Below are positions 14,430 through 63,994 of a stretch of 64,000 nucleotides of DNA, piece after piece. The translations under genes and the position numbers were made by a program. The number at the start of each line of letters is the position of its first letter. The stretch's first letter is position 1. Source of the stretch: Candidatus Dojkabacteria bacterium (GTDB lineage: Bacteria; Patescibacteriota; Dojkabacteria; JAOAGR01); contig AP026679.1 in the NCBI GenBank assembly GCA_025999155.1, positions 400,699 through 464,698 on the forward strand, read 5' to 3'. The notes under the pieces are model-generated. The model was given only the letters and a program-made list of their open reading frames with translations. It was not told the DNA's origin and did not search any database.

Positions 14430-14556
14430 ATTTGGCCTCCATTAGCATCTGATATTGCATTTGATACAGAATTTTACCTTATTTATGTAAATTTATTTAT
14501 CCATTATGAATTTGGCCAAATATACATTTGTGATCTTTCACGCACGTTGTAATAAA

Positions 14557-14604
14557 ATACGCACCCGGTTGGGAATAATCGTAATCCGGTAGGCGTATTT
14601 TTTT
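14557..14604. terminator. hairpin + T-run between hsdS and hsdR (possible bidirectional terminator/attenuator)
   Basis: An imperfect ~10-bp stem 'atacgcacccgg...ccggtaggcgtat' is followed by 'ttttttt' on the + strand. Read on the minus (coding) strand, the hairpin is followed by the weaker U-rich 'tttatt'. Confidence 0.3.
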
Positions 14605-14624
14605 GCGTTCTGGATGAGACATTT

Positions 14625-15932: not shown

Positions 15933-15967
15933 ATTTACAATAGTTCAAAGCTCACTTATACATCTAC

Positions 15968-16262: not shown

Positions 16263-16563
16263 CATAATTCACATGACTACTCTCATTCATACACTTAGCC
16301 AGTTCATGCAATTTTTCAGGCATATTCATTATCAGCGCTTTCTTCTTTTTTCGACTCCATCCTTGTACCTGTTTCTCCCTGTAAAATGCTTCATCTATCC
16401 TGCTGTATTCTTCAAAATAAACTAATTTCACCGGCAAGCGCTTTTTTGTGTAATTCGATCCTTGGCCTGCCTGATGCTGTGCTAATCGTAATTCCAAGTT
16501 AGTTGTACTACCAGTGTAATAGCTACCATCTGCGCATTCCAATATATACATGTATCCTTTCAT
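16198..16563 (-). CDS. GIY-YIG nuclease domain protein (UPF0213/YhbQ-like); C-terminus runs into the repeat island
   Basis: The N-terminus 'MKGYMYILECADGSYYTGSTTNLELRLAQH...' has GIY-YIG motifs (Y..Y..GST, R, E, N). The C-terminal ~30 residues ('VGGFGSAQPPTTPLNHRLPAP') are encoded by the GC-rich repeats. It is inserted between hsdM and hsdS. Confidence 0.65.
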   Translation of the reverse strand: MKGYMYILECADGSYYTGSTTNLELRLAQHQAGQGSNYTKKRLPVKLVYFEEYSRIDEAFYREKQVQGWSRKKKKALIMNMPEKLHELAKCMNESSHVNYVGGFGSAQPPTTPLNHRLPAP

Positions 16564-31238: not shown

Positions 31239-31350
31239 GATTGATTGAAAGGGTGTATAGGCATTTTATCGACAATTACATACCATTATTATCACATGCG
31301 ATGATGAGTATTAACTGTTCTTCGACCGTCATTATAAACTCAATACTGAG

Positions 31351-32220
31351 TTGAACTTTATCATATCTATGTCTCAGGATTCACAGAATAAAAAAACTGA
31401 AATCGGCATCGGCAGTGAAAACATAAACACTGAACAAAATAAACAGGATGAAATATACTTCGTTGAGAAAAAGTTAGAAGATATGTTCAGAGACAATACT
31501 GCATCATCTGAGCATGCCAGTCAGACAACATCTCGACCACCTGATTATCTCGTCAATATTGCAAATGAGACAAAACAGCCTGAAATAGGTATTTTTTCCT
31601 TTTTTAAAAGCATATTTAATGGGATAATGTGGATCCTCAAACACAGATTATTAGATATCTTTTTAAAGATGTCTATTTTTGTTCTTCTGACTTTCTTGTA
31701 TCTTAGTGTAAAGAGCATGAACAACTCAAAGAATGATTCTACCACGTCCACATCAACATCATCATCGACATCAACACCAACGCCCCAGGGAAGCTATCTC
31801 TATATTACTCCTACACCGACAAACCGACCTCCAGTGCAATCAACATATAAAGTTGGGGAAAAAGTAATTGTAAATGACTTAGAAATCACTGTAGAAAAAG
31901 TAAAAGATGTAGTAGCCAAATACCCTACAGAAGGCAAGAAATATATAGCAGTATTACTGTACATAAAAAATAATAAAACAAAATCTGTCAGCATAAGCGA
32001 GCGATATGATTTCATATTAAAAGCATCGGATGATAGTCAATATAGTCCATCCATCGTAGAAAAAACAGATCCGGCCTTAGGTTTTGCAACTGTTTTTCCG
32101 GACAATGCAGTGAGAGGATGGATCACTTATGAAATACCAAAAGAAGCTAAAGGTCTATCGTTGGTTTTTGATTCGTCAATTACTGGAGGGAGTTTAATCA
32201 AAGTAGAACTAGGATTGTGA
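31351..32220 (+). CDS. membrane-anchored DUF4352-domain protein (paralogue 2, tandem duplicate)
   Basis: Its C-terminal ~150 aa are ~70% identical to the upstream paralogue ('PPVQSTYKVGEKVIVNDLEITVEKVKD...AVRGWITYEIPKEAKGLSL'). The upstream leader and 'MS(H/Q)DS' start are also duplicated. The N-terminal regions diverge. Confidence 0.6.
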   Translation: MNFIISMSQDSQNKKTEIGIGSENINTEQNKQDEIYFVEKKLEDMFRDNTASSEHASQTTSRPPDYLVNIANETKQPEIGIFSFFKSIFNGIMWILKHRLLDIFLKMSIFVLLTFLYLSVKSMNNSKNDSTTSTSTSSSTSTPTPQGSYLYITPTPTNRPPVQSTYKVGEKVIVNDLEITVEKVKDVVAKYPTEGKKYIAVLLYIKNNKTKSVSISERYDFILKASDDSQYSPSIVEKTDPALGFATVFPDNAVRGWITYEIPKEAKGLSLVFDSSITGGSLIKVELGL

Positions 32221-35418: not shown

Positions 35419-35430
35419 AGATTCATAAAT

Positions 35431-37911
35431 CTACACAAAAGCATTCAGATCAATATTTTTACGGATAAAATCAACAACCAAGTCCAAAATTGTTTGTAGA
35501 TTTTCGATATCTTCAAGAGATAATTTAGGATTGGTACAAAGCCTGGAATACTGCTTACTATCGATAATATCACGAATATCTCCATCAGTAACATATATCT
35601 CAATAAAATCCCTCAATAGTTTCCTATCGACATCAGGATTATGAGCATTTAAAAATTTAGTAAAAACCTCGTCTATCAAATCATCCTTTGTCTTAATCTT
35701 AGGAATACGACCGAGAATATAGCCAATTATTTCCTTCACCGAAACCTTTCTATTCACATCTAAAGCCTTAGCTAATTTATCCAAATTAAAGTAATATTCT
35801 GGTTTATTAAATAAATTCTGATCTACATACTCTTCTAACTTATCATACTCCTGATCCTCATAAAGCCTATTGATAATAGGATCAATCTTCACATCATCAG
35901 CAAATCTATCAAAAAACTTCCTATCTATCTTCATACCTTCGGCACCAATATGCGTTTTGGTAATAGTTTTGATTGGATCAGGAATAGATATGGTTACCTC
36001 ATCGATACTTATAGATTTAGTCTCGTCCGGTGAGTCTATCCTCTCACTTGATATCGGTAATTTCAAAACCCGATCATAATCAAATTTCTCCTCAAAATAC
36101 TCACAATTAGCAAAGAAATCAAAAAGATAAAATTCTTTCTTGTCTATCTTGATTTCTTGGCCATTTTCATCGGTATAGGAAAAAGTATGTGTACGCGTAC
36201 CACGCCCTTTGATCTGAATAAAATCAGTAGGTGAAAAAATCGGCCTCATCAGACAAATATTCAAAATATCCTGACAATCATATCCCGTCGTCATCATATT
36301 GACTGTCACACATACGCGTGTCTTGCTTGATTTGTAGCCTTCTTTGAATTTTGTCACACCATTGAGATTATTATTAGCAAATTTCTGTGCATAGCTTTGT
36401 GCATCATGAATATTCGATGTTACTTGTACCGCAAAATCAGAATTATACATTCCTGGCCAATATTGATCAGCTAAGTGATTGAGAATAGCTGTAATCTTTG
36501 ATGCATGATTTTGACTCACACAAAATACCAGAGTCTTGCCAATTTCCCCGCTTATCGGATCTCTCAAAGCATTATCCAAAAAAGCCTTACAAAAAGCGTT
36601 ATTTGTCTCTCTTGAGAAAAATCTTTTCTCAAAATCCTTTGAAAAAAAGACTTTTTCACTTTCATCTCCTTCCTCAGTACGTACTACCGTAGCATAGCCC
36701 TGATCAGAGAGTAATTGTGTAGTGATATGAGTTCTAGCATCATATACGACTGGATTGATTAGGTAGCCATCTTTGACTCCATCTATCAAACTATAGCGAA
36801 ATGTAGGTTCGCCCGATGGACATCCAAATGTATTATAAGTATCCAATAATTGACGACGTTCAAAAGCCCTAGGATCTTCTTGACTTAATTTCTCAATGTC
36901 TACATTCCTTAGATAATCTCTAGGTGTAGCAGTAAGTCCTAACTTATACCCAATGAAATATTCAAATACATCACGACTATTGCCCGAAATCGATCTATGC
37001 GCCTCATCCGAAATCACTAATTGAAAATCATGGGGAAGAAATAATCTACGATACCTATTATCCTTCAATAAACTCTGAACCGTAGTGACCACAATATCAG
37101 CGCTATTCCAAACATCACGATTCTCTTTATAAATCACTACCCTGAAATCTTTTTTGAGTAATTGAACAAAACTTTGATATGCCTGATTTTCTAATTCTAT
37201 CCTGTCCACTAAAAAAAGTACCCTTATGGCATTTCTAGTTTTTAAAAATAGTTTAATGATAGCCGCAGATAATAGAGTCTTACCTGTACCCGTCGCCATC
37301 TCCAATAAAAACCTTGTCTTACCTTCTTTTACAGCTTGTTGGATAGCATGGATAGCCTTGAGTTGGTAATGTCTGAGAAATTTTAGTTGATTATCTTTGA
37401 TAAATTTTTGCCTTGTAGATTCATCTAGCCACTCAGGATGACTCTTATAATCACTTATCTGAGTCAAGACTACAAAATCACTTTCGACTTTTTCACTAGC
37501 TAAGGCATCAAAATCAAATTTGTACTCTTTGACTCCTTCTATTGATTTTAAAGAAGGAAATTTCTCGATCTGTACAGGATTACCATGGTTCAAATCCCAG
37601 AAATAATGAGTTTCACCATTGGACAAAATTACATAATTTACACCCATGGCCCATGCATATTCACGGGCTTGTTCTTTAGCATCCAAAGGATCTTTATGAG
37701 CAGCCTTCGCCTCAATAACTATGATTGGAGATTGATTATCATCAAGAAGTACATAATCTATAAACCGTACTCCTGATCCATCTCCAGTATTTATATGTAC
37801 TGTAACTTCAGTTCTGACATTTGCTCTCTTGCCATTGGTATTTTCTAGCATCCAACCGGCCTCTTCCAGTAATTTGTTGATTTTCAACCTGGCATCAGAT
37901 TCTTTTGGCAT
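35431..37911 (-). CDS. type I-like restriction subunit: N-terminal PD-(D/E)xK (HSDR_N/Mrr-like) nuclease + SF2 DEAH helicase
   Basis: The N-terminus 'RFIDYVLLDD...IIVIEAKAAHKD' is a D...EAK nuclease core. Helicase motif I 'LEMATGTGKTL', motif II 'VISDEAHRS' and motif VI-like 'QIKGRGTR' follow. It lies 12 nt upstream of the fused MS gene on the same strand. Confidence 0.75.
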   Translation of the reverse strand: MPKESDARLKINKLLEEAGWMLENTNGKRANVRTEVTVHINTGDGSGVRFIDYVLLDDNQSPIIVIEAKAAHKDPLDAKEQAREYAWAMGVNYVILSNGETHYFWDLNHGNPVQIEKFPSLKSIEGVKEYKFDFDALASEKVESDFVVLTQISDYKSHPEWLDESTRQKFIKDNQLKFLRHYQLKAIHAIQQAVKEGKTRFLLEMATGTGKTLLSAAIIKLFLKTRNAIRVLFLVDRIELENQAYQSFVQLLKKDFRVVIYKENRDVWNSADIVVTTVQSLLKDNRYRRLFLPHDFQLVISDEAHRSISGNSRDVFEYFIGYKLGLTATPRDYLRNVDIEKLSQEDPRAFERRQLLDTYNTFGCPSGEPTFRYSLIDGVKDGYLINPVVYDARTHITTQLLSDQGYATVVRTEEGDESEKVFFSKDFEKRFFSRETNNAFCKAFLDNALRDPISGEIGKTLVFCVSQNHASKITAILNHLADQYWPGMYNSDFAVQVTSNIHDAQSYAQKFANNNLNGVTKFKEGYKSSKTRVCVTVNMMTTGYDCQDILNICLMRPIFSPTDFIQIKGRGTRTHTFSYTDENGQEIKIDKKEFYLFDFFANCEYFEEKFDYDRVLKLPISSERIDSPDETKSISIDEVTISIPDPIKTITKTHIGAEGMKIDRKFFDRFADDVKIDPIINRLYEDQEYDKLEEYVDQNLFNKPEYYFNLDKLAKALDVNRKVSVKEIIGYILGRIPKIKTKDDLIDEVFTKFLNAHNPDVDRKLLRDFIEIYVTDGDIRDIIDSKQYSRLCTNPKLSLEDIENLQTILDLVVDFIRKNIDLNAFV

Positions 37912-49056: not shown

Positions 49057-50136
49057 ATGAGCCCGCAATTTGCACAAAGTGTTCATGATGATATAGCTTT
49101 TTTATTACAACAGTTGCGCTCATCGAATTGCCCTGAAGAATTACGTTCGGAAGTAGAGCGCAAATTAGGAATAATCATCAAAACAGCGCAATTTGGCGGA
49201 TTTTCTACTGAATTTGAGAAAATTACTAAATATGTAGAATGGATTTCCCGTATACCATGGGGAAAATATACAGTTGATAATCTTTCTCTAGCTAATGTAA
49301 AAAAGACTTTAGATAAGCATCATTATGGAATTGAGAAAGTAAAAGAAAGAATACTTGAGTACATATCCATCATGAAATTAAAGATGGATCAAGAAAAGAC
49401 TAACGTTGTGAGAGCTCCAGTGATGTGTTTTGTCGGGCTTCAGGGAATCGGCAAAACTAGTCTTGCAAAAGCTATTGGTGAGGCGATGGGACGATCAACA
49501 GTCAGAATTGCTATGGGAGGTCTGGGTTCTACTTATGAGTTACGAGGTAAGCCAAAAACAGAACCAGATGCAGAGCCTGGACAAATTATCAAAGCTTTAA
49601 TTAATGCTGGTAGTATGAATCCACTAATTATACTTGATGAGATGGATAAAGTCTCGGGGAATATAGCGCTAAGAAAAGATTTTATGGCAATACTACTTGA
49701 AATATTGGATCCAGAACAGAACTATGCTTTTCGCGACCATTATATTGATTACCCTGTAGATTTATCTAAGGTGTTTTTCATTGCTACCGCGAATAATCTA
49801 GGAAATGTATCCGCTGCTTTATTGGATCGCTTGGAGGTGGTTCGATTCTATTCATATTCAGATGAAGAAAAAGAAGTCATTGGTAAGTTATATCTACTAC
49901 CTAATATTATGCAGGAAGTTGGATTAACATCTGAACAATTAGAGTTCACTGATGATGCTTGGCCTACTATTGTGAGACCTTTAGGATTTGATGCCGGTAT
50001 TCGCCAATTAAAACGCAATCTGTATTCTATTTGCAGAAAAGTCGCAAAAATTATAGTCCTTGGTAAAGCTAAAAAAGTGATTATTAATTCAAACAATGCA
50101 AAATCTTTTATAGACGAAAGTTTTGCCGTGATGTAA
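49057..50136 (+). CDS. Lon-like AAA+ ATPase module lacking the Lon N domain and the S16 protease domain (359 aa)
   Basis: It is collinear with E. coli Lon residues ~240-590: 'WISRIPWGKY...HYGIEKVKERILEYI', Walker A 'GLQGIGKTS', Walker B 'ILDEMDK', 'LLEILDPEQNYAF', 'FIATANN' and 'LDRLEVV'. It ends at the linker where the protease domain should begin. Confidence 0.7.
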   Translation: MSPQFAQSVHDDIAFLLQQLRSSNCPEELRSEVERKLGIIIKTAQFGGFSTEFEKITKYVEWISRIPWGKYTVDNLSLANVKKTLDKHHYGIEKVKERILEYISIMKLKMDQEKTNVVRAPVMCFVGLQGIGKTSLAKAIGEAMGRSTVRIAMGGLGSTYELRGKPKTEPDAEPGQIIKALINAGSMNPLIILDEMDKVSGNIALRKDFMAILLEILDPEQNYAFRDHYIDYPVDLSKVFFIATANNLGNVSAALLDRLEVVRFYSYSDEEKEVIGKLYLLPNIMQEVGLTSEQLEFTDDAWPTIVRPLGFDAGIRQLKRNLYSICRKVAKIIVLGKAKKVIINSNNAKSFIDESFAVM

Positions 50137-50323: not shown

Positions 50324-50929
50324 TTATCTATTCTCTTCCCATTCGGTAGAGTAGAGAATATCTTCAATAGCTAGTCTATAATCATAAATTTCATCTTCCT
50401 TGAACCAAACAGCTAATTCTCTTTCGGCTTCTTCAACGGAGCTTGATGCGTGAATCAAATTACGTGCTGCTCGGTCGGCTTCATCTGCAAGTACATATGA
50501 ATCTATCGTGTAATCACCTCGTATTGTACCAACATCAGCATCAAGCGGACTACCATGTCCTACAAGTTTTCTTACATGATCGATAGCATGGGCCCCTTCG
50601 ATTACCATGACTAATACTGGTCCAGCGAGCATAAATCTAACTAGTCTTCTTTGTACATCTTCTGCAATTTTTATTGGATCCATGTTTAATTCTATGCCTC
50701 TCTTTTTATATGACTCCAATGTACGTGTGCCGCTTTTCAATTTTTCTTCATCTGACCAATAATAATGTGCTTTTGCTTGTTCTTCTGTAGCCTTGAGAAA
50801 TTTCATAGCTACAATTTTTAGGCCTTTTTTTTCGAAGCGTGAAATTATTTCGCCCATTAGCCCTCTTTGTACAGTATCTGGTTTTAGTAGTACTAATGTT
50901 CTTTGGTATGATAATGGTTTATTTTGCAT
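50324..50929 (-). CDS. ndk: nucleoside diphosphate kinase (with ~50-aa C-terminal extension)
   Basis: It has the NDK motifs 'RTLVLLKPDTVQRGLMGEIISRFE' and 'NLIHASSS'. Confidence 0.85.
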   Translation of the reverse strand: MQNKPLSYQRTLVLLKPDTVQRGLMGEIISRFEKKGLKIVAMKFLKATEEQAKAHYYWSDEEKLKSGTRTLESYKKRGIELNMDPIKIAEDVQRRLVRFMLAGPVLVMVIEGAHAIDHVRKLVGHGSPLDADVGTIRGDYTIDSYVLADEADRAARNLIHASSSVEEAERELAVWFKEDEIYDYRLAIEDILYSTEWEENR

Positions 50930-51109: not shown

Positions 51110-52321
51110 ATGAATGTTTACTTATTAGGATTAATTACTTTCTTAAATGCTTCTTGTATCGGACTGGTAATCCCGGTAATGTTTAATTATGCTTCTAGTT
51201 TAGGTCTTGATAATGTCTTAGTAGGTTTACTCTTTGCTACTTTTCCTTTTGCCCAGTTCTTGGCAACCCCAGTAATTGGAAGATTGTCGGATAGATATGG
51301 GCGCAAAACTTTACTTGTAATTTCGTTATTGGGAACTTTTTTTGCTTCGTTGATTCAAGCTTTGGCTACTAATGGATGGATGTTATTTTTGGGAAGATTT
51401 TTGGACGGGATTACAGGAGGCAACACTTCGGTAGTACAAGCAGCGATTGCTGATTCTGCAAAAAATAAAGATAAGACTTTTGAATTTGCTTTATCTGGAG
51501 CGGCACATGGTTTGGGATTTCTTTTTGGTACTCTTTTAGCTTTATTTATTTCTAGAATTGGCAATTTTTACGTTTATATGAGTGCGGCTTTCCTTGCACT
51601 CATTGCAACAGCGATTACATTATTTTTTCTTCCAGAAACTAATTTGTACAGAGAAACAAAACCTTTAAATGTAGTAGAGTTAGTATTTTTACAAATATTT
51701 AGAGCTTTCAAATTACCTGTGATAAGAGATATTTTGATAATAAGCTTGGTAACTGGTATATCTCTTATGCTTTTCCAAGTTACTTTTCAGCCTTATATAA
51801 CAATGAATTTCGGATACGGTCAGGATGAAATTACACAAGTTATGATATTAAATGGATTGATGAGTATAGCTTTTTTAGGGTTAAAGTGGATTGTTGATAG
51901 GTTTGGTTTGATTCGTTTATTAAAGTTGACGTTTTTACTAAGATTGTTAGTCTTTTTAATTCTCGCACTAATTATTGATAGATATGTTTTTTGGGGGGCT
52001 ATGCTGATTCTTGCAGTTACTAATTTAGTTGGTAGACCTGTGATTTCTAATATGATTAGTAATTATGCAAGAAAAGAGGATCAGGGTGCTGCAATGGGTG
52101 TTGCTGAGAGCATGTATTCTATAGGATTAATTATCGGACCGTCGATATTTTCAATCGCTACAATTCCCCTAAATAATGGCTTTACTCTGGGATTCGAAAT
52201 GCTAAATAATGCTCTAATTACTACAGCAAGTAATTACACACTCCCTTTTTATTTTATGGCATTAATTAGTTTGATTACTTATGTTCATGTCATTAAATTT
52301 ACTAAGCAAATTGAGTCATAA
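51110..52321 (+). CDS. MFS transporter (paralogue 1)
   Basis: A 12-TM pattern with the MFS motif A-like 'GRLSDRYGRK'. It is ~65% identical to the MFS at 55575-56834. Confidence 0.7.
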   Translation: MNVYLLGLITFLNASCIGLVIPVMFNYASSLGLDNVLVGLLFATFPFAQFLATPVIGRLSDRYGRKTLLVISLLGTFFASLIQALATNGWMLFLGRFLDGITGGNTSVVQAAIADSAKNKDKTFEFALSGAAHGLGFLFGTLLALFISRIGNFYVYMSAAFLALIATAITLFFLPETNLYRETKPLNVVELVFLQIFRAFKLPVIRDILIISLVTGISLMLFQVTFQPYITMNFGYGQDEITQVMILNGLMSIAFLGLKWIVDRFGLIRLLKLTFLLRLLVFLILALIIDRYVFWGAMLILAVTNLVGRPVISNMISNYARKEDQGAAMGVAESMYSIGLIIGPSIFSIATIPLNNGFTLGFEMLNNALITTASNYTLPFYFMALISLITYVHVIKFTKQIES

Positions 52322-52468: not shown

Positions 52469-52565
52469 AATCTGCCATTTTTAACATTCAAAATAAATAA
52501 GTATATAATGCGACTCATTTGCATTATTTATATTTTACTATATAATCGGCAGGTGTATCTCGTTA

Positions 52566-52945
52566 TGGTAAGAAAATATTCGGTCAAAAGGCAAAGAATA
52601 CTACAACTTTTTGAAGATCATCATATATTGACTGCTAATGAGATTGTACGATTATTACCAGATATTGATCGCGCTACGATTTATCGTAATTTAAAGTATT
52701 TTGTTGAAACTGGTGAAATTCGCCAATTGCAAATACAAAAAAATGTTATGAGTTACGAGCGTTTTAATCCAGATGATATGCATCAGCATTTCTTATGTCG
52801 TAATTGTAATAAAGTCTTAAAAATATATGGAATAGACAAAAACTATATTCAAAGTAAATTGCCACATGATGTGAATGTAGAGTTTATAGATTTAAATGTA
52901 ATAGGTGTATGTGATGAATGTAGCTCCGTTTTAAAACCTTGTTGA
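52566..52945 (+). CDS. Fur-family metalloregulator (Fur/Zur/PerR-like)
   Basis: 'SVKRQRILQLF...LTANEI...IDRATIYRNLKYF' forms the wHTH. The C-terminus carries metal-site residues 'HQHFLCRNCNKV...CDEC'. The start is moved to the ATG at 52566 because the longer ORF overlaps the ndk remnant. Confidence 0.7.
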
Positions 52946-52991: not shown

Positions 52992-53948
52992 ATGAGAGTA
53001 GCTTTCGTAGGTAAAGGTGGCAGTGGGAAGACCACTATTGCATCATTATTTGCATCATTTTTAGCATACAAAAAGCAGAAAAATATATATGTGGTTGATG
53101 CTGATCTTAATAGGAATATAGCAACACAATTAGGAATTGATACTAGTTCTGTACCAAAATTAAGTGATCCCGAAAATCAAACAAAGATACGTTTGTGGTT
53201 AATGGGCATTCGTCACGATATACCTGAAAATAATTTAAAGTACTTCAAAAAAACGACTCCTCCGCGTATTGGTTCAAATATAATAAAAATATCTGACATT
53301 GATTCCTATCCTGTATTAAGAGAATATTTTATAGGAGATTCTATTAAGCTTGCAGAGATAGGTGAATATGACAAAAGCCTAGTTGCAAAAAATTGCTATC
53401 ACGGGTCATTGAGTATTTTAGAAAATATTTTGAGTCATCTAGATGATAGAGAAGGCTGGTTTGTTGTTGATATGGTAGCAGGGACAGATGCCTTTGTGGG
53501 ATCTTTGTTTGTACAGTTCGATTATATCTTTGTTGTTGCAGAACCTACACGCAATTCACGAGAAGTAGTTCGTCAGTTTGATGAATTAGCAATGCATACG
53601 GGCACTCAACATATATTCAAAATTATTGGTAATAAGGTTGAAAGTTTTGACGATGTCGATTTTATAAAATCTTTTAGTAAAAACTTAGAGTTCCTATATG
53701 CTTTCAAAAAGTCTGACTACATAAAAAGGGTTGAAATAACTGATTCGAAATTTGAAATTCAAAAACTTGAAAAAGATAATCTAAATGTATTGGAATCTCT
53801 TTTTACATATGTAGCAAAGAAGACAATTGACCCTAATGCAAGATTGGAATTATTGCGCAAATGGCACTATAAGGTAGCTATGGATCATTCTGGAGAAGAC
53901 AGAGATATTTTACTTAATCAAATAGCTAACGAGATATTATTTAATTGA
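52992..53948 (+). CDS. CooC/MinD-family P-loop ATPase (putative metallocentre-assembly ATPase)
   Basis: It has the deviant Walker A 'VGKGGSGKTT', 'VVDADLNRNIA' (compare CooC 'DADPDANLA') and 'DMVAGTDAF...VVAEPT...IGNKV'. The CooC 'CxC' Ni motif is replaced by 'NCYHG'. Confidence 0.55.
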   Translation: MRVAFVGKGGSGKTTIASLFASFLAYKKQKNIYVVDADLNRNIATQLGIDTSSVPKLSDPENQTKIRLWLMGIRHDIPENNLKYFKKTTPPRIGSNIIKISDIDSYPVLREYFIGDSIKLAEIGEYDKSLVAKNCYHGSLSILENILSHLDDREGWFVVDMVAGTDAFVGSLFVQFDYIFVVAEPTRNSREVVRQFDELAMHTGTQHIFKIIGNKVESFDDVDFIKSFSKNLEFLYAFKKSDYIKRVEITDSKFEIQKLEKDNLNVLESLFTYVAKKTIDPNARLELLRKWHYKVAMDHSGEDRDILLNQIANEILFN

Positions 53949-53958
53949 ATTTAGTAAT

Positions 53959-55323
53959 ATGAATGTTTTTATTGGAGAAAATTCATTGCAGGATTTTTTA
54001 AACCCTTCTAATATATTTACCCCACTGGTCGAACTACCATCTTCATTAAATACATTTATTGATAGAAACGTCAGAATTTTCATTAAATTAATGTCACATA
54101 CTTCGCTTTTTAATATAAAACACGTAACAGTTTATTCGATGCTAGCACGCACACGAATAGCTGGTAAGCGCTTTCTTGTAGAGAGTTCTTCGGGGAATAC
54201 TGCACTAACATTAAGTATTCTAGCTAAGTACTTTGGATATAAAAAAACAAAATTCTTTTTTTCCCATAGGGTACCTATCGGAAAATTGAATTTGATTAAA
54301 CTTCTTGCTGATGAAATAGAGGTAAATAAAGAGCCTTTATGTCCTGATAAGAAAGATCCAAATTCTTCTATAAACAAAGCAAAATCAATTGCACAAGAGT
54401 CTGATTTTTTAAATCTAGATCAGTATTCTAATCCAGCAAACCCACAGGGGCATTTTGAAGTCACAGGACAACAAATTTTAGAACAATTTGAGTATGCCAA
54501 TTTGCATGTTGATTATCTTTTTGCTGCTGTAGGAACAACCGGAACTATTGTAGGTACTTCGTTGAAACTTAGGGAAAGATTTCCAAGTTTAAAGACAATA
54601 GGAGTAGCGTCTGCCGATGATATGGTTCGGCTTGGTGCTAGATCAAAAAATTTACTTGAAGAGATAGATTTTGAATGGAAATCTCATGTCGACGACTTAG
54701 TGGAGGTAGACGTACAGACAGCTTTTGTCAATTCTATCAATCTTGTGAAATCAGGAATATTAGTTGGACCGTCTACCGGTCATATATTTGGTGGAATCCT
54801 AAAATATGTAGGTGAGAATAATGTCAACAATGCGAACATTGTATTTGTCTCATGTGATACATTTTTACCGTACGTAGAAGAATATATCAAATATTTACCG
54901 TCTGAATATATGGCAAGTGTCATAAATGAAGATCTAGCTTTGAATTACGCTAAAGTACAAGCTAAATTAGCAGGAAGGAATTATATGGACTATAGAATTG
55001 AAGCAGATGTTTTTATAGAGAGGTATCGAAATCTTGACAATAACAGTATTTGTATTGATATAAGAAAAGATAGTGAGTATTCAGCATTTAGGTTACAAAA
55101 TGTCGAAAGGATTCATGAGCAAGATTTAGAGGACGAAACAGTCCAGTCCAGTATAATTAATAATCTGAAGAGTTACAATTCGGTATATGTAATAGATTGT
55201 GGTATGTCAGACATGGCGAAATTACTTAGTCTCATCTTGAGACAAACAGAGGTAAATGCGTATTGGGTAGATGGAGGTATGGACTACATTTCTAAAAACT
55301 GGCCTGAATTAATTGTTCGTTAG
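53959..55323 (+). CDS. CysK-like PLP-dependent beta-replacement enzyme fused to C-terminal rhodanese domain
   Basis: The N-terminal ~320 aa align with O-acetylserine sulfhydrylase: 'TPLVEL', PLP-Lys region 'LFNIKHV', 'LVESSSGNTA', 'QYSNPANPQGHFEVTG' (compare CysK 'QFSNPANPEIHEKTTG') and 'AAVGTTGTIVG'. The C-terminal ~110 aa are rhodanese-like with active-site Cys in 'YVIDCGMSDMA'. Confidence 0.7.
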   Translation: MNVFIGENSLQDFLNPSNIFTPLVELPSSLNTFIDRNVRIFIKLMSHTSLFNIKHVTVYSMLARTRIAGKRFLVESSSGNTALTLSILAKYFGYKKTKFFFSHRVPIGKLNLIKLLADEIEVNKEPLCPDKKDPNSSINKAKSIAQESDFLNLDQYSNPANPQGHFEVTGQQILEQFEYANLHVDYLFAAVGTTGTIVGTSLKLRERFPSLKTIGVASADDMVRLGARSKNLLEEIDFEWKSHVDDLVEVDVQTAFVNSINLVKSGILVGPSTGHIFGGILKYVGENNVNNANIVFVSCDTFLPYVEEYIKYLPSEYMASVINEDLALNYAKVQAKLAGRNYMDYRIEADVFIERYRNLDNNSICIDIRKDSEYSAFRLQNVERIHEQDLEDETVQSSIINNLKSYNSVYVIDCGMSDMAKLLSLILRQTEVNAYWVDGGMDYISKNWPELIVR

Positions 55324-55574
55324 TATTTAAGAGTTGATTTTGTAATTATAAATTTACTCAGAATGAATTTCAGTGTAATTTCATCATTCGTATATTGCGT
55401 GATATTTCAACCATCCTGATACTGTTGTTTAATTGATCATGTCCTTGTGAATCGGAGAATTAATAGTTCATCTTTGGCTCAGTCAAAGTCATTTATTTTT
55501 ATATGTTTTTACTTGCATAATGTTTATTCTAGGTTAACATTGTGTTAGAATCGCGAGCATATTTTTTTAGGGAT

Positions 55575-56834
55575 ATGGGATCAAAGAGACTGATATTTAT
55601 AGTGGGGTTAATTTCTTTTTTAAATGCCCTTACTTTAGGTGCTATTATTCCAGTAATTTATACTTATGCTTCAAGCTTTGATTTAAACGATGCTTCAATA
55701 GGTGTACTTTTTGCTACTTTTTCTCTTGCTCAATTTTTTGCGACTCCAGTTATAGGTAGATTATCAGATAAATATGGACGTAAACCTCTATTAGTCATTT
55801 CACTATCTGGTACATTTGTTGCTTCACTAATTCAAGCTTTTGCTACTAGCGGATGGATGTTATTTTTGGGAAGGTTTTTGGACGGAATTACAGGAGGGAA
55901 CAATTCGGTCGCTCAGGCTGTGATAGTAGATTCTGTTGAAGAAAAAGATAGACCATTTGGGTTTGCTGTATTTGGAGCTGGTTTTGGTTTAGGTTTTCTT
56001 GTCGGCCCAGTGATTTCTCTATTTATCTCTAAAATAGGAAACTCTTACGTATTTTCATTTTCAGCTTTACTTGCTTTAGTGACAACATTGATAGCATTAT
56101 TTGTCCTTCCCGAAACAAATTTGAATAGAGAAACTAAACCACTAAATTTTGTAGAGGTACTTTTTTTAGAAATATTTCGAGCTATGAAAATGCCGATAAT
56201 AAGGGATATTTTGTTAATTAATTTTATTACAGCTCTTTCTACCGCTATTTTTCAAATAGCATTTCAGCCTTACATAACCGTAAATTTCGGTTATGGTCAA
56301 GATCACATTTCATATGTATTGATACTAAATGGAGTTATTAGTATAGCATTTTTGGGGTTTGTTAAACGTCTAAGCGATAAATTTGGATTAAATAATCTAC
56401 TTAGATTAACATTTTTAATTAGATTTTTAACGTTTTTGGTTCTTGCAGTAATTGTTAACAAATTAATTTTTTGGATTGTCATGGTAGTCTTAGGTTTTAT
56501 AAATTTATTTAGTAGACCAGTTATTTCTACTATGATTAGTAATTATTCCAGAAAAGAGGACCAGGGGACCGTTATAGGTGTAGCAGAGAGCATGTTTTCA
56601 CTTGGATTAATCATTGGACCATCATTATTCTCATTAACTTCACTTCCCAAAAATTCGGGATTTAGTCTAGGAAGCCAAACATTAACAAATTTATTAATAA
56701 ATTCTGCTAATAATTATACGCTTGCATTTTATCTAATGGCAGTAATAAGTTTGTGTGCTTTTGTCTATGTATTAAGGTTTACAGCTATCGTTGAGAAAAT
56801 GTTTTCTACCCATAAGAAGGAAATAGACTTTTAA
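55575..56834 (+). CDS. MFS transporter (paralogue 2)
   Basis: It has the same family and motif ('GRLSDKYGRK') as paralogue 1. The start is taken at the ATG at 55575 (MGSKRL...) by alignment with paralogue 1. Confidence 0.7.
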   Translation: MGSKRLIFIVGLISFLNALTLGAIIPVIYTYASSFDLNDASIGVLFATFSLAQFFATPVIGRLSDKYGRKPLLVISLSGTFVASLIQAFATSGWMLFLGRFLDGITGGNNSVAQAVIVDSVEEKDRPFGFAVFGAGFGLGFLVGPVISLFISKIGNSYVFSFSALLALVTTLIALFVLPETNLNRETKPLNFVEVLFLEIFRAMKMPIIRDILLINFITALSTAIFQIAFQPYITVNFGYGQDHISYVLILNGVISIAFLGFVKRLSDKFGLNNLLRLTFLIRFLTFLVLAVIVNKLIFWIVMVVLGFINLFSRPVISTMISNYSRKEDQGTVIGVAESMFSLGLIIGPSLFSLTSLPKNSGFSLGSQTLTNLLINSANNYTLAFYLMAVISLCAFVYVLRFTAIVEKMFSTHKKEIDF

Positions 56835-57036: not shown

Positions 57037-58122
57037 ATGCAAATAGTACAACAAAACGAAATATCTCTAGCTGACATTGTCGCTGTGCTAAGACGAAATG
57101 GGCTTATTATATATCCGTTTGACACTTGTTATGGATTAGTATGTGATCCTACCAATCAAGTTGCCGTTGATAAATTGTTAAAATACAAGGCCCGAAGAGA
57201 AGGTAAGGCTATTTCTGTGACTGTAAAGGATATTGCAATGATAGAAGAGTATGCTGTAATTAATGATACAGCTCGTAATTTTATTCAAAACTTCTTGCCG
57301 GGACCTTTTACTGTCGTTTTACAATCCAGACATAAATTTGCTGATGGAATAGAAGCAGAAAATGGCACAATAGGTATTCGTATCCCCAATTATAGACCTA
57401 TTGTAGATCTGGTTGGTTTGTATGGGTCACCTTTGACATCTACTTCAGCCAATCAAAGCTATCAAAAAACTCCTTACAAAATTTCTGATATTTTGGATTA
57501 TGCAAATAGACGCGATTTAGATTATATAGATCTAATAGTAGATGCTGGTGATCTTCCTAAAAACCCTCCTTCCACGGTTATTGATTTTTCTAACGATAAT
57601 ATTCATGTATTGCGAAAAGGATCAATAATCCCAGAGGGAGCAGACTTTAGTCAACGGGTCTCAAATTCGGTCGCTGACACTATAGCGATCGGCAAAGAAT
57701 TGATGCAAAAATATAGAACAAATCTCCAATATAGACCTGTGATATTTGCCTTACAAGGAGATATGGGAGCAGGGAAAACTCATTTTACTAAAGGATTAGG
57801 ACTAAGCTTAGGAGTCAAAGAAGAAATCAATTCACCAACATTTGTTATTGTAAACGAATATAATTTAGATACAGGAAATAAGTTATATCATATTGATACT
57901 TGGCGGTTAGACATATCTGCTGACTTTCACGAACTAGATGAAATCCAATTTGTTAATATGCTAAGAAAGGAAGGAGATTCATATAATGCCATCTCAATTG
58001 AATGGTCTGATAAAATTGTTGATTATTTGAATAAAATAGATAGCAATATCAAGCTTATATGGGTTGAGATTGTCATCGATTATCAAAGTCCTAATAAACG
58101 AATTATTAAATGGAGTGAGTAA
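57037..58122 (+). CDS. TsaC (YrdC-domain) :: TsaE fusion protein for t6A37 tRNA modification
   Basis: The N-terminal ~200 aa form the YrdC/TsaC domain ('IYPFDTCYGLVCDP', 'LTSTSANQS'). The C-terminal ~150 aa form TsaE ('ALQGDMGAGKTHFTKGLGLSLGV...SPTFVIVNEY...YHIDTWRL'). Confidence 0.7.
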   Translation: MQIVQQNEISLADIVAVLRRNGLIIYPFDTCYGLVCDPTNQVAVDKLLKYKARREGKAISVTVKDIAMIEEYAVINDTARNFIQNFLPGPFTVVLQSRHKFADGIEAENGTIGIRIPNYRPIVDLVGLYGSPLTSTSANQSYQKTPYKISDILDYANRRDLDYIDLIVDAGDLPKNPPSTVIDFSNDNIHVLRKGSIIPEGADFSQRVSNSVADTIAIGKELMQKYRTNLQYRPVIFALQGDMGAGKTHFTKGLGLSLGVKEEINSPTFVIVNEYNLDTGNKLYHIDTWRLDISADFHELDEIQFVNMLRKEGDSYNAISIEWSDKIVDYLNKIDSNIKLIWVEIVIDYQSPNKRIIKWSE

Positions 58123-58857: not shown

Positions 58858-60669
58858 TTAAAGACGGGTTCGTCTGAGTGACAGTCGAATTTCCTCTCCT
58901 TTTCCCTGTGGTGCTGGTGGATCAACTTCTTCTCGGGCAACTGGTAAATCATTTTGAATTAACCATAGAGCAAAAGTATCTGCGATGTTGAGTTGATTAA
59001 GTACGATATAGTGTAACATAGCTTGTACAAATCGGTATTTTCCTATCTTGATAACATTCTCTATGTCCTCACCTAAGGTCCATTTACATCTTTGCCAGTG
59101 ATAAGTGATTTCATTTGGTGCTTTTTCGTCGAAGCCATTTTCTTTCCCATACAAAGAATGCATAAATCTATTTAGAGAATAACCTATAGGAGATACAATA
59201 GCATATTTTAACAACGGGTGCATATCTACAAACATCGTCCAGTCTGGGAGTGCTATGTTATATTGGTTTTCCGCTCTTTTCAGAACATACCTATCCGCGG
59301 GTGTGTAATGTGCGAGGAAGGGGAATTTTTTGAAACCCTGAGTAATAAGTTCTATAAATACAAAAAACTTCAACAAATTTTCCCGTATATCCCTATCACT
59401 AGTACTGTTCGCTGTAAACGTCATCACACGTAATTTCTTTCCTTTTTCTCCTAATTTATTTAGTAATGGGGCAAAAGTATTTTGAAAAATTCCGTGAGGG
59501 GACAGTGTTTGATAAAGTATCGGTAAAGCCATTTTGATCAATTTAAGTCGGTTTACCGTCGCACGCATTGTTTCAAGAGTATTCTTATCCAGTGGGGCAT
59601 GCCTTTGTTTGGTATTTTCGTATAAAATTGCTATGTTTTCGATAATAAAGTTATAAATAACCTGAAGATTTTTTTCTGGTTCGTATGCAATAGATGATAT
59701 TAGGTTTAATTGTCTAGTAATTCTGTGTAACTTCCTTAAATGTTTTTGATGTAGATGAGGGTCAAGATCTTCGTTATATGCGTCCTCAAGTTGTACTAAT
59801 ATGTATTCAAAATATTCTATAAGGGGAGCTCTGTAATTATGATCAAGGTCTTGAAAGTCCACCTTGTCTTTGTCAAGATTATGAGAAGCTATGGATGTTA
59901 TTGTTCGATGTATTTCGCTTATAAAATAGTTAAAAGAGAAAGTAGATGATGAAAGTTTACGTTGTTTTCCATTCTTTGATTGCGAGTCTATTTTATATGG
60001 TACATGTGAATCATTTACAGAGTCTTGTGAAGCATGCGATGAGTTTGATGTAATACCGTACACTTTCTCTAATTGTCCTAATAATACTTTTAATTTTTGT
60101 GATACATCGGTGATGCGACTACTAGGCATTTGCATACTGTTAATTTGAGTCAAATAGTTACTGCCAAGACTATGTATCTCCTTGATTTGGTGTTGGATTT
60201 GGGGGTGAATTGTTTTGTATACAGTCAAATAATTACCTACAATCTGTTCAAAACGTGATGCTAAGGCCTGTATTCTTTGGTCTAAAGGTTCACCTGATCC
60301 CAATGTAGATTCATGCAGTATACCTATATGATAAGGAGGTTGATTAGGTATAAATTCGGTGTCGAAAAATATTATTTCTATTTCATTAGGATCAATACCT
60401 TCTTCATTTGCTATTCGCTCGAGAGCTTCAAATGCGGATGTAACACTGTCTGTTTGTGTCGCAGCTTGTCCCAGAAATAATTCGGCATAATTTATTATCT
60501 GTTGTCCTCTATTTGGTCCTAAAATACTTTTAATCTTCTTTTGTCCTGAAGGTACGGCTTGGATGCCACCAATGCCTACACTTTCTAATCTTTCTGCTGT
60601 AGATTGCCCAACCGAATGAAGTACCGTTAGTGGTGTGTTGCTTTGCCTTGTTAGATTAAGACTGTGCAT
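58858..60669 (-). CDS. hypothetical protein (603 aa) with N-terminal HhH-like segment
   Basis: The N-terminal 'LTVLHSVGQSTAERLESVGIGG' looks helix-hairpin-helix-like. Nothing else is recognisable. Confidence 0.4.
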   Translation of the reverse strand: MHSLNLTRQSNTPLTVLHSVGQSTAERLESVGIGGIQAVPSGQKKIKSILGPNRGQQIINYAELFLGQAATQTDSVTSAFEALERIANEEGIDPNEIEIIFFDTEFIPNQPPYHIGILHESTLGSGEPLDQRIQALASRFEQIVGNYLTVYKTIHPQIQHQIKEIHSLGSNYLTQINSMQMPSSRITDVSQKLKVLLGQLEKVYGITSNSSHASQDSVNDSHVPYKIDSQSKNGKQRKLSSSTFSFNYFISEIHRTITSIASHNLDKDKVDFQDLDHNYRAPLIEYFEYILVQLEDAYNEDLDPHLHQKHLRKLHRITRQLNLISSIAYEPEKNLQVIYNFIIENIAILYENTKQRHAPLDKNTLETMRATVNRLKLIKMALPILYQTLSPHGIFQNTFAPLLNKLGEKGKKLRVMTFTANSTSDRDIRENLLKFFVFIELITQGFKKFPFLAHYTPADRYVLKRAENQYNIALPDWTMFVDMHPLLKYAIVSPIGYSLNRFMHSLYGKENGFDEKAPNEITYHWQRCKWTLGEDIENVIKIGKYRFVQAMLHYIVLNQLNIADTFALWLIQNDLPVAREEVDPPAPQGKGEEIRLSLRRTRL

Positions 60670-62617: not shown

Positions 62618-63994
62618 TCATTTAGATAGAATGTAAAACATTCCAAATATTAAAATTATAAAGCCTGAAATTATCGGTGATAAAAATTCTGCTTGTTTCC
62701 CAAATTTTTCATCGACTCGTATTTTTGTTTTCCCTTTAAGTATTAGGGATCCAAGTAATATGATGGAACTAGCAAGTCCTAAACTAAACGTAAACACAGT
62801 TATCAGTCCAAGATCAATACGCCCTAAACTCGTAAATGCGAATAATAATGATAATGCATCTATACAAGGTATCATTCCTCCAGATATGCCAGCATAAAAT
62901 AAACTCCATTTATTTGTAATATCAATTAATTTATTATTTTTTAAAATATTTCTAGAAGATTGAGCTTTCTTTCCGTACAGATATAAATATTTGTAATTTT
63001 TATATGCTTTATAACCATTATAAAAAAGGATTAAGCCTAGACCGATAAATAAAAACGCACTAATTCGTTCTATCATACTAATTACTACTTGTGCTTCTGA
63101 AGTACGATTCAAGAGTAATAACATAAAGCCTAGTATAAATATAACTAAAGTATGAGCTAATGTGACAGATAACCCTATTATCATAATATCATAGACGTTT
63201 GCGCCTTTTTTACTTACTAATACTGTAGCCATAATACTTTTTCCATGTCCTGGTGTTGCAGCGTGTAAAGCTCCTGCAATAAATGCAAAAAATAATGCAG
63301 GAAATAGCGCTAATGGATTACTAAAATCATAGTATCGAATATTGTTAATTAATTGCGTTGATAAGTTTCTGATATTATCCATTAAATTAATATTAGATAG
63401 TGAATTTTGTTCTTTTTCGTTTATATTATCTGTAAATTTAAACGTTGTTATATATGTACCAAATTCCAGATTCTCCTGAGGTGTTTCAATTTTTTGAAGT
63501 TTATTTCTTTCTGAAATATTGTCTTCATAAAGGATAGAGTCACCATAGAAGTCGTTTGGTAGATGTCTTTTACTATATACCGCGTGTACTGTGTTAATTT
63601 CCTGTATAGATGGATTTTGAGCTTTAAGATTTATCGAGATATAGTCATTCAAACTTCTAAAATCTCTTTTATTAATTGGTTCAGATGAGATATATTCGAA
63701 TCTTATATTTTGGTTATTAAGTTTTACTGATAAATAAGGTGCTATTGAATTTTCATAGTACAACCTCAATTCTTCATTGGTTGTAATGTTATCATTATTA
63801 GCGTCTATTTCAGGATATACTGCATCTATTACGGCGGGGTCTATTCTAAGACGATAATTTAGATATATTTCAGTATTTTTATAGTTAAATATTAATTCTG
63901 TGATCACTAATGGTTGAGGATGTGCTTTGATTTGATAAGTACTAAATAGGATTAGTATAGAAGTAAAGATACATGTGTAAATAAATTTAAGCAT
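62618..63994 (-). CDS. NicO/RcnA-like Ni/Co transporter-family membrane domain fused to ~230-aa N-terminal extracytoplasmic domain
   Basis: An N-terminal signal peptide and a large non-membrane domain are followed by a C-terminal TM domain with 'GALHAATPGHGKS' (compare NicO/RcnA 'HALEPGHGK'). Confidence 0.4.
   Translation of the reverse strand: MLKFIYTCIFTSILILFSTYQIKAHPQPLVITELIFNYKNTEIYLNYRLRIDPAVIDAVYPEIDANNDNITTNEELRLYYENSIAPYLSVKLNNQNIRFEYISSEPINKRDFRSLNDYISINLKAQNPSIQEINTVHAVYSKRHLPNDFYGDSILYEDNISERNKLQKIETPQENLEFGTYITTFKFTDNINEKEQNSLSNINLMDNIRNLSTQLINNIRYYDFSNPLALFPALFFAFIAGALHAATPGHGKSIMATVLVSKKGANVYDIMIIGLSVTLAHTLVIFILGFMLLLLNRTSEAQVVISMIERISAFLFIGLGLILFYNGYKAYKNYKYLYLYGKKAQSSRNILKNNKLIDITNKWSLFYAGISGGMIPCIDALSLLFAFTSLGRIDLGLITVFTFSLGLASSIILLGSLILKGKTKIRVDEKFGKQAEFLSPIISGFIILIFGMFYILSK

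Follow-up and report, generated by a model that had tools for sequence, protein, structure and literature searches.

The DNA considered here, referred to as the window, is a stretch of 64,000 nucleotides from a Candidatus Dojkabacteria bacterium (assembly GCA_025999155.1, contig AP026679.1, positions 400,699 to 464,698 of the forward strand), with about 33% G+C and a gene content typical of the candidate phyla radiation (CPR). At positions 53959 to 55323 it carries an open reading frame (ORF) in which a pyridoxal 5'-phosphate (PLP)-dependent domain is joined to a rhodanese-like domain, preceded by the genes of a Fur-family regulator and of a CooC-like ATPase. The conserved partners in this arrangement point to metal homeostasis and not to housekeeping cysteine synthesis. 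The database entry that is 100% identical to the protein is a hypothetical protein from a metagenome-assembled genome (MAG) of Candidatus Dojkabacteria. The gene is organized as follows:

53959–55323, plus strand: PLP–rhodanese ORF with an ATG start, 454 amino acids and no internal stop codon
53959–54873, plus strand: PALP beta-replacement domain (fold-type-II PLP), residues 1–305, Pfam PALP E = 2e-36
Key codons of the PLP domain, plus strand: Lys54 at 54118–54120, Asn80 at 54196–54198, Cys128 at 54340–54342, Arg228 at 54640–54642 and Ser272 at 54772–54774
54874–54993, plus strand: conserved helical linker CDTxxPYxxEYxKxL...NEDL, recognized in alignments, shared with the fungal enzyme aspergillomarasmine A (AMA) synthase and absent from CysK and CysM
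54994–55323, plus strand: rhodanese-like domain including the stop codon, residues ~346–454, with the Cys414 codon at 55198–55200

An earlier sequence-only reading of this DNA had proposed a covalent fusion of a PLP domain of the O-acetylserine sulfhydrylase superfamily with a rhodanese domain, and this architecture is borne out by one uninterrupted ORF, in which the Pfam PALP match spans residues 20–300. The same fusion was found in other genomes as well, with 48 prokaryotic homologues from independent assemblies (31–67% identity) that are colinear with the window protein across both domains; given the continuous ORF and these homologues, an origin of the fusion in a frameshift or a missed stop codon is ruled out. 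On the sequence of the window protein alone, the Pfam Rhodanese match (residues 358–444, E = 0.0019) remains sub-threshold, at 19 bits against a gathering cut-off of 22.2. A profile built from the C-terminal 115–140 residues of 18 family members, in turn, matches 6mxv (2e-33), 1yt8 (1e-18) and GlpE (7e-12), as well as PspE and YgaP, and a precomputed PF00581 match is present in most homologues. An AF2 model computed from a 20-sequence alignment (pLDDT 92, pTM 0.85) places two helices in the linker (residues 303–312 and 324–337), and the secondary-structure order of its C-terminal domain agrees with the rhodanese fold. Judged from the family profile and from superposition of the model, the prediction of a rhodanese fold is secure despite the weak single-sequence Pfam score, so that the concern that the C-terminus might be something else has been answered.

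The motifs highlighted in the sequence-only reading fall at residues 76–82 (SSSGNTA), 155–162 (QYSNPANP) and 414–419 (CGMSDM). In the 20-sequence alignment, Lys54, Ser77-Ser78-Gly79-Asn80, Gln155, Gly192-Thr-Thr-Gly195, Arg228 and Ser272 of the PLP domain are invariant, as are Asp367 and Gly440 of the rhodanese domain, and the Lys, Asn and Ser positions of the PLP site are kept in nearly all of the ~65 family members examined. The high conservation asserted for the first two motifs was therefore found, and the PLP catalytic set is intact.

The label of a CysK-like enzyme held at the level of the superfamily and failed at the level of orthology. The NCBIfam scores of the protein miss every curated cut-off (SbnA, 116.7 against 350; cysKM, 110.7 against 344; CysM, 94.5 against 413; CysK, 92.3 against 351; CBS, 98.9 against 510), which rules out CysK, CysM, SbnA or CBS orthology. 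These scores bear directly on the most conventional explanation, namely a housekeeping cysteine synthase of the CysM or CysK2 type whose rhodanese domain would allow the use of thiosulfate and whose neighbours would be coincidental. Such an enzyme would accord with the placement of the PLP domain in the CysK/CysM superfamily, with its CysM-like PGxR motif and with the JGI label of the homologues, 'cysteine synthase/rhodanese-related sulfurtransferase'. We nevertheless regard it as very improbable, since scores for cysKM, cysM, cysK and SbnA are one third of the curated cut-offs, the family is rare and set apart from CysM by a large score gap, and the operon with Fur-family and ATPase genes is kept across phyla and across two domains of life.

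The closest characterized relative is instead AMA synthase. By sequence, the top solved relative is 8h4q/8h4h, entitled 'Rhodanese domain-containing protein' (E = 3e-45), with CBS and CysK following at about 1e-18, and a Foldseek search with the AF2 model returned Aspergillomarasmine A synthetase (E = 3.5e-38, 489 columns, both domains) ahead of CBS at about 4e-22; the Foldseek entry names identify 8H4H as apo AMA synthase and 8H4Q as AMA synthase with O-phosphoserine (OPS). Residues 7–344 of AMA synthase were reconstructed from the alignment output and run against the prokaryotic family profile, where its PLP domain obtained 376 bits, compared with 358–441 bits for undisputed members devoid of rhodanese and 122–175 bits for CysM, CysK, CBS and an SbnA homologue. 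Identities of this PLP domain amount to 47% with a Saccharibacteria member, 41% with an Iainarchaeum member and 33% with the window protein. On these sequence comparisons, the window protein is placed in the AMA-synthase (PLP plus rhodanese) family, within which the prokaryotic rhodanese-bearing members form a distinct subfamily because all of them have SSGNT and Cys128. The PGxR[ST] motif of the prokaryotic family matches PGPRS of AMA synthase, the structure of which was solved with O-phosphoserine, and its invariant Arg228 suggests an anionic leaving group.

The family is small, with ~47 clusters at 90% identity among 5.8 billion proteins before a score gap down to CysM. An exhaustive HMMER scan of 1.84 billion representatives (50% identity) recovered ~35 full-length prokaryote-type representatives. 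Its further matches were AMA-type proteins of the fungi Puccinia, Ceraceosorus, Ophiocordyceps and Mycena, one prokaryote-type protein from the yeast Ascoidea, and PALP-only relatives in larger number. Other fusions were seen during these searches (proteins and loci are cited by our working numbers): a single 801-amino acid protein combining ThiS, ThiF, PALP and Rhodanese (P0170), among the distant matches; a CysRS and PALP fusion of ~769 amino acids, among a set of CysK-family fusions (P0166, P0319, P0364/P0367/P0369); a prokaryote-type PLP–rhodanese protein of 765 amino acids with a methyltransferase-like N-terminus, for which the methyltransferase matches are sub-threshold (P0319); and proteins of 617–922 amino acids that join a large N-terminal domain resembling fold-type-I PLP enzymes to an AMA-family PALP domain.

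The most distinctive feature of the prokaryotic members is a pair of cysteines. Cys128, in the EPxCPD loop of the PLP domain, and Cys414, at the active-site position of the rhodanese domain, are invariant in the 20-sequence alignment and occur together in all 48 rhodanese-bearing prokaryotic members, and Cys128 is missing in 14 of the 17 family members without a rhodanese domain. A further C-terminal cysteine (PRxxxxxC) is present in ~35 of the 48 prokaryotic members and absent from the Dojkabacteria clade that includes the window protein. In the AMA-type fungal members, Gln or Pro-Ala occupies position 128; most of these members carry SSGST for SSGNT, and the Mycena AMA-type member has Ser in place of the rhodanese Cys. 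Ascoidea rubescens P0337, by comparison with 8h4q, P0346, P0352, P0361 and P0363, displays the complete prokaryotic three-cysteine signature, which suggests that there are two kinds of fungal family member and that the Ascoidea copy may derive from horizontal transfer. The rhodanese Cys that the sequence-only reading located in the CGMSDM loop is Cys414, and its invariance supports that assignment, although the loop itself (CGMSDMAK) is degenerate and acidic, as is the pattern CG[MLF]SD[MAT]AK throughout the Dojkabacteria clade. Most prokaryotic members have canonical CxxGx[RK]S loops, such as CRSGNRS and CQRGVRS, which by their sequence look catalytically competent.

The PLP–rhodanese gene is likely the last of a three-gene operon, delimited by the following features:

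52481–52546, plus strand: two overlapping sigma-70-like promoter candidates, TTAACA-17-TATAAT and TTTGCA-17-TATAAT, 5' of the Fur-family gene
52506–52526, no strand assigned: perfect palindrome TAATGC-N9-GCATTA, candidate operator of the Fur-family repressor
52565–52945, plus strand: Fur-family metal-sensing regulator, 126 amino acids counted from the ATG at 52565, Pfam FUR E = 6e-17
52992–53948, plus strand: CooC-like P-loop ATPase, 318 amino acids, with a deviant Walker A motif GKGGSGKT (Lys8, Lys13) and a Cys135-Tyr-His137 motif
55472–55488, plus strand: terminator-like hairpin with a T-run, candidate for the end of the operon

The gaps are short, with 46 nt between the Fur-family and ATPase genes and 10 nt between the ATPase and PLP–rhodanese genes. 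The two promoter candidates score 11/12 and 10/12, the best of a 6-kb region in which the total number of such sites is not above chance, and the alternative listed TTG start of the Fur-family gene, at 52442, would fall upstream of them. The palindrome overlaps the -10 element of one promoter candidate and the -35 element of the other; it is the sole zero-mismatch copy in the window, where no further copies were found beyond chance, and comparable TGCA-containing palindromes occupy the same position in three other loci (L010, L008 and L011), so that it may be considered a putative operator for the Fur-family repressor. Terminator-like sites numbered 4 in the region, compared with 2.5 expected. 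The window regulator itself matches the PerR, Fur and Zur models of NCBIfam, in all cases below the cut-off.

This operon is conserved across CPR bacteria and DPANN archaea. Among 11 distinct loci retrieved with the PLP–rhodanese protein as seed, which include Absconditabacteria/SR1 genomes and one archaeal contig, the ATPase gene lies directly upstream of the PLP–rhodanese gene in eight, with an overlap of 23 nt in L002. Seven of the 11 loci have an adjacent Fur-family gene, as do at least 10 others from GTDB. When the ATPase served as the seed for a scan of GTDB species representatives, this added at least 14 genomes in which the ATPase gene is followed by a full-length PLP–rhodanese gene, and a few additional loci in which the latter is split or cut by a contig end. 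These genomes belong to Dojkabacteria, Berkelbacteria, Saccharibacteria, Parcubacteria, Gracilibacteria, Iainarchaeum and three small MAGs labelled Gammaproteobacteria, and the Fur-family gene is also present in most of these loci.

Genes related to metal homeostasis recur beside the module. COG0523 (cobW) genes adjoin the module in L001, L008 and L038, the last of which also encodes a ZnuA-type binding protein and an ABC ATPase; YibE/F membrane proteins with His-rich tails are found in L010, L019, L020 and L030; a His-rich membrane protein occurs in the Micavibrio and Rhodospirillaceae loci; and the regulator is clearly Zur-like in Micavibrio (L032). The presence of COG0523 beside Fur-family genes is reportedly a recognized mark of zinc regulons (Haas et al., 2009), and zinc is our best guess for the metal of the module. 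Oxidative-stress genes also lie near it in some genomes, namely superoxide dismutase in L012, AhpC and a nitroreductase in L005, and superoxide reductase in L009. In L009 (3479–3703), a 74-amino acid Cys-rich repeat peptide (GQGCGCKNGQGRGQGC...) is encoded upstream of an Mrp/ApbC-type ATPase with a CPHC motif, an SfLAP-like protein and a DUF134 protein, and these genes precede a PLP–rhodanese gene that is not accompanied by the Cys-Tyr-His ATPase.

In the window, the operon is flanked by two transporter genes of the major facilitator superfamily (MFS), which are 62% identical to each other:

51110–52321, plus strand: Tet(A)-like MFS transporter, paralogue 1, MFS_1 E = 4e-49, with 146 bits for Tet(A/B/C), below the cut-off
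55542–56834, plus strand: Tet(A)-like MFS transporter, paralogue 2, recognized by Pfam and NCBIfam matches

A counterpart of these transporters was seen in no other locus fetched, which rules them out as conserved partners of the module; paralogue 1 is a possible exporter, and for both paralogues membership in the module is uncertain. Genes for sulfur assimilation, serine biosynthesis, Suf or Znu functions were not found among the window ORFs examined. A membrane transporter of the NicO family (Ni/Co-type), with an N-terminal extracytoplasmic region of ~230 residues, is encoded 7 kb from the module (62618–63994, minus strand).

The best solved match of the partner ATPase is CooC1 (3kje; E = 3e-9, residues 1–227), in which QCYCR aligns with NCYHG of the ATPase, and the Cys-x-Cys motif of CooC forms its interfacial metal site. 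In seven orthologues of the window ATPase, Cys135 and His137 are the only invariant potential ligands, and the Cys-Tyr-His motif was read in 80 of 80 GTDB relatives from a family of at least 1194 database relatives. We infer that this protein may act as a metallochaperone. Its relatives are known from CPR, DPANN, cyanobacteria and Micavibrio and from almost all matches in Streptomyces or Kitasatospora; in the two latter genera the ATPase gene adjoins a fusion of a SulP transporter with a beta-carbonic anhydrase, and as a clue to function the Streptomyces loci offered this fusion alone, with no PLP–rhodanese gene. Two CPR loci were also found in which the ATPase has a Fur-family gene as its sole neighbour and no enzyme.

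The ATPase-seeded scan additionally uncovered eight loci with a different, CysM-like PLP–rhodanese protein (L024, L027, L029, L031, L032, L033, L038 and L047), in Melainabacteria, an Oculatellaceae cyanobacterium, Micavibrio (two loci), Rhodospirillaceae, Spechtbacteria, Lithacetigena and Woesearchaeota. This protein is 25–30% identical to the family of the window protein, reaches 158 bits against CysM and 36 bits against Rhodanese, carries a Cys in the same C-x-D...D-P loop, and has the rhodanese loop CPVGEKT. Its operon runs from a cysteine desulfurase through the Cys-Tyr-His ATPase and a LysA-like fold-type-III decarboxylase to the PLP–rhodanese gene (for example, L029 4790–11633), with a BT1/MFS transporter, a MerC-like protein, a Fur/Zur regulator, COG0523 and ZnuA as optional members. 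The desulfurase is of the IscS type in the cyanobacterium and Micavibrio and of the SufS type in Spechtbacteria, and this recruitment of two desulfurase classes to the parallel cluster is the strongest argument for a flow of sulfur through the rhodanese domain in the ATPase-linked systems; by analogy, it may support such a flow in the family of the window protein. The parallel operon looks like a biosynthetic cluster for an exported sulfur-containing metabolite, and, because lanthionine is the sulfur isostere of diaminopimelate, one may speculate that its product is lanthionine-like and is then decarboxylated.

Our preferred interpretation of the window gene is that it encodes a beta-replacement enzyme, regulated by metal starvation, which turns an O-activated serine into a chelating amino-acid derivative. 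We consider this core probable, albeit with considerable reservation, because it unites the family tie to AMA synthase, the chelation of zinc by AMA, the conserved Fur and ATPase operon and the metal-homeostasis neighbours. AMA is a natural Zn2+ metallophore (PMC8829947, PMC8319579), and the substrates that AMA synthase joins to OPS are L-Asp and, in a second step, toxin A; SbnA and CmnB join OPS with L-Glu (PMC12751119; bioRxiv 10.1101/2025.10.30.685158).

A more specific version of this interpretation, which we advance only tentatively, is that the chelating amino acid is made with a persulfide on Cys414 as the source of the nucleophile. Sulfur is favoured as the nucleophile because Cys128 and Cys414 are strictly conserved, a conservation lost in the AMA-type enzymes, and because desulfurases are contained in the parallel operons. 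According to this scheme, when metal (most likely zinc) is scarce, the repressor would leave the palindrome that overlaps the promoter and the operon would be expressed. The PLP bound to Lys54 would take an O-activated serine, most likely O-phosphoserine, with its phosphate held by Arg228, and elimination of the leaving group would yield an aminoacrylate on PLP. The attacking sulfur would sit on Cys414 in persulfide form, supplied by a cysteine desulfurase whose gene lies elsewhere in the genome, while Cys128, in a loop at the mouth of the PLP site, might relay it or resolve a mixed disulfide; the C-terminal Cys could join this relay in most family members, although not in the Dojkabacteria clade. 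From this would come a thiol or thioether amino acid, for example cysteine or a lanthionine-type, S-bridged analogue of marasmine, that may serve as a metal ligand alongside the co-transcribed ATPase, taken here as a metallochaperone with which the enzyme might be in physical contact.

The coupling of the fusion to sulfur chemistry, envisaged in the sequence-only reading as the direct use of a protein persulfide in beta-replacement, stays viable in light of these conserved cysteines. However, the fusion alone does not imply sulfur chemistry, because AMA synthase and Fda4, with the same architecture, make C–N and not C–S bonds. This leads to an alternative in which the window protein is a C–N ligase similar to AMA synthase, joining O-phosphoserine to the amine of an amino acid such as Asp, once or repeatedly, to form an aminopolycarboxylate zincophore of the marasmine or ethylenediaminedisuccinate (EDDS) type, released by MFS or other export. 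The cysteines and the rhodanese domain would then be accessory (structural, regulatory or anion-binding) and the ATPase a merely co-regulated metallochaperone. Although in itself rather unlikely, this alternative is nearly as likely as the sulfur version and is the default by homology, considering that AMA synthase is a bona fide family member by its profile score and identities, with both domains, the N-terminal extension, NVK, PGPR[ST] and the linker in common; that AMA synthase and Fda4 both use O-phosphoserine and amine nucleophiles; and that AMA is a Zn2+ metallophore while the prokaryotic genes lie in neighbourhoods resembling those of zinc homeostasis. Moreover, a single enzyme would be enough, which suits tiny genomes, and two Tet-like MFS exporters flank the operon in the window, although these genes are not conserved at other loci. 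What such a C–N ligase leaves unexplained is the invariance of Cys128 and Cys414 (48 of 48) against the loss of Cys128 and, in one case, of the rhodanese Cys in AMA-type fungi, the C-terminal Cys in about 35 of the 48 members, the tight coupling to the ATPase and the desulfurases of the parallel lineage, and the Asn loop SSGNT of the window protein also differs from SSGST in AMA synthase.

The position of the cysteines admits another explanation, in which a disulfide or a bound Zn, Ni or Fe at Cys128 and Cys414, and perhaps also at the C-terminal Cys, acts as a redox or metal switch or as a site of metal transfer. The PLP site would then be gated, as the Bateman module gates CBS, or metal would be exchanged with the Cys-Tyr-His motif of the ATPase, making the enzyme a client or adaptor of the metallochaperone. 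The loop of Cys128 aligns with the active-site-entrance loop of CysK and CBS, residues 191–202 in CBS, and the co-occurrence of Cys128 with the rhodanese domain is strict; the ATPase partner is of the CooC type and has a Cys/His site predicted to be interfacial; and both the oxidative-stress genes in L012, L005 and L009 and the regulators of several CPR genomes, which score best as PerR-like, would suit a redox function. We nonetheless judge a switch improbable, given that most rhodanese loops of the family look catalytically competent, that the desulfurases of the parallel lineage argue for sulfur flux, and that genes repressed by Zur or Fur normally serve metal acquisition or provide metal-independent substitutes, and do not normally encode metal-requiring clients.

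Sulfur could also flow in the opposite direction, if the PLP domain were a cysteine or cystine lyase whose sulfur is trapped as a persulfide on Cys128 or Cys414 and handed on, to the ATPase or to some other acceptor, for the assembly or repair of a metal–sulfur centre, as a minimal, SufU-independent and metal-stress-induced form of sulfur mobilization. Enzymes of the CysK family perform beta-elimination of cysteine, and rhodanese domains are persulfide carriers; the module is under a Fur-family regulator; and the SIMIBI ATPases NifH, Mrp/NBP35 and CooC handle metal–sulfur centres (PMC9164220). This direction has little probability in our estimation, because the parallel lineage already has a dedicated cysteine desulfurase, which would make a second mobilizer redundant, one conserved Cys and one His would be an atypical ligand set for an Fe–S scaffold, and Arg228 and the kinship with AMA synthase point to a substrate of the O-phosphoserine type.

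Several observations weigh against the metal-starvation reading and particularly against its sulfur version. Both characterized fungal PLP–rhodanese enzymes form their C–N bonds without sulfur, and plain cysteine made from cysteine-derived sulfur would be a futile pathway. No cysteine desulfurase was found within ~6 kb at any locus of the clade of the window protein, and the lineage that provides the desulfurase link is a different PLP lineage, being only 25–30% identical. The loop CGMSDMAK has no basic residue inside it and an Asp at +4, in addition to the sub-threshold Pfam score of its domain. The enzyme family is much smaller than that of the ATPase, which is often found without the enzyme, so that co-transcription need not mean joint catalysis. 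Finally, NCBIfam typing did not assign the CPR regulators to Zur, Fur or PerR, and only that of Micavibrio was Zur-like.

Combining all of these elements, one arrives at a zinc-starvation module composed of a Zur-like repressor, a new class of CooC-type Cys-Tyr-His metallochaperones and a PLP–rhodanese enzyme in which a persulfide relay of two or three cysteines would produce a thiol or thioether (lanthionine-like) zincophore. Its hosts would be ultra-small CPR and DPANN organisms together with some cyanobacteria, Melainabacteria and Micavibrio, and AMA synthase would be a derived offshoot that lost the relay and adopted amine nucleophiles. As a joint proposition we consider this unlikely to hold in every part.

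Other genes of the window deserve mention. An ORF of 361 amino acids (57037–58122) fuses Sua5/TsaC (residues 17–195) with TsaE (residues 210–340), t6A tRNA-modification proteins that are usually separate. Two type I restriction-modification systems are present, one (11508–18128) with a GIY-YIG nuclease ORF (16198–16563) between hsdS and hsdM and the other (32860–37911) with the methylase and specificity domains fused in an 852-amino acid ORF. A Lon-like AAA+ module of 359 amino acids (49057–50136) has the Lon lid domain and no protease domain, and a nucleoside diphosphate kinase of 201 amino acids (50324–50929, minus strand) is matched by the NDK domain in two stretches, which suggests an insertion or extension relative to the usual ~140 amino acids. 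Additionally, tandem DUF4352 proteins of 293 and 289 amino acids (30357–32220) are probably secreted paralogues, and a 603-amino acid ORF (58858–60669, minus strand) has no Pfam match at E<=0.001.

The PLP–rhodanese fusion was itself already known, since AMA synthase was solved in 2023 and Fda4 was characterized in 2025. In the searchable literature, we found no account of the prokaryotic family members and their cysteine signature, nor of the operon of Fur-family and Cys-Tyr-His ATPase genes and its distribution in CPR and DPANN; the relevant publications found were one on Fda4 of Fusarium and those on AMA. The recurring three-gene module would offer a concrete and testable handle on the acquisition and allocation of trace metals in these organisms. 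The Cys-Tyr-His ATPase family may represent a second type of metal chaperone beside COG0523 and, if sulfur is used, the enzyme would be the first PLP beta-synthase to contain its own persulfide donor. AMA inhibits metallo-beta-lactamases by removing Zn2+, and the prokaryotic relatives of its synthase, whose active-site signature differs, might serve as new biocatalysts or provide new chelators.

When compared with known systems, the window protein most resembles AMA synthase of Aspergillus, with which it shares the order of PALP and C-terminal rhodanese domains, the N-terminal extension xNxFxGxxAxxDFxxP, an NVK lysine motif that lacks the customary Asp-Arg, PGPR[ST] and the linker CDxPxPYxxEY; the Zn2+-chelating product of AMA synthase also fits the metal-homeostasis neighbourhood of the prokaryotic genes. 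In contrast, AMA synthase is eukaryotic, has Gln for Cys128 and SSGST for SSGNT, lacks the C-terminal Cys motif in the residues compared and makes C–N bonds, the likeness to the prokaryotic clade being one of sequence and fold. We know of no ATPase or Fur-family partner of AMA synthase. Fda4, from the L-2,3-diaminopropionate (L-Dap) module of fusadapamide in Fusarium poae, is likened here by description and not by sequence, as a PLP enzyme of the 'cysteine synthase' family with a rhodanese-like domain that uses O-phosphoserine (PMC12751119). Unlike what is seen at the prokaryotic loci, where no such partners occur, it joins O-phosphoserine to L-Ala and a FAD oxidase partner frees L-Dap for a non-ribosomal peptide synthetase.

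The partner ATPase has its counterpart in CooC1 of Carboxydothermus hydrogenoformans (3KJE), the best solved match across the ATPase core, with a deviant Walker A motif bearing the signature lysine and a Cys-x-Cys metal motif that aligns with Cys-Tyr-His. CooC is an ATP-dependent Ni insertase in which the metal site is coupled to nucleotide binding (PMC9164220). In the window ATPase family, however, His replaces the second Cys in 80 of 80 relatives, the window ATPase has a C-terminal extension of ~90 residues, and no carbon monoxide dehydrogenase is found in these genomic contexts.

SbnA and SbnH of staphyloferrin B and the Dap-forming CmnB exemplify metallophore pathways under Fur regulation that combine a CysK-family enzyme with O-phosphoserine, and in the parallel lineage (L024–L047) the PLP enzyme comes with a fold-type-III decarboxylase and an MFS transporter, in the manner of SbnH and SbnD. 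SbnA differs in having neither a rhodanese domain nor an equivalent of Cys128, and no SbnB-like dehydrogenase accompanies the system described here. The CysM/CysO/MoeZ system of Mycobacterium tuberculosis, in which a CysM-type enzyme uses O-phosphoserine and a protein-bound sulfur donor fed through a rhodanese domain, is the nearest precedent for the sulfur coupling suggested in the sequence-only reading. That system depends on a ThiS-like carrier, an E1 enzyme and a JAMM protease, all absent from the system described here, in which the rhodanese domain is fused to the PLP enzyme itself.

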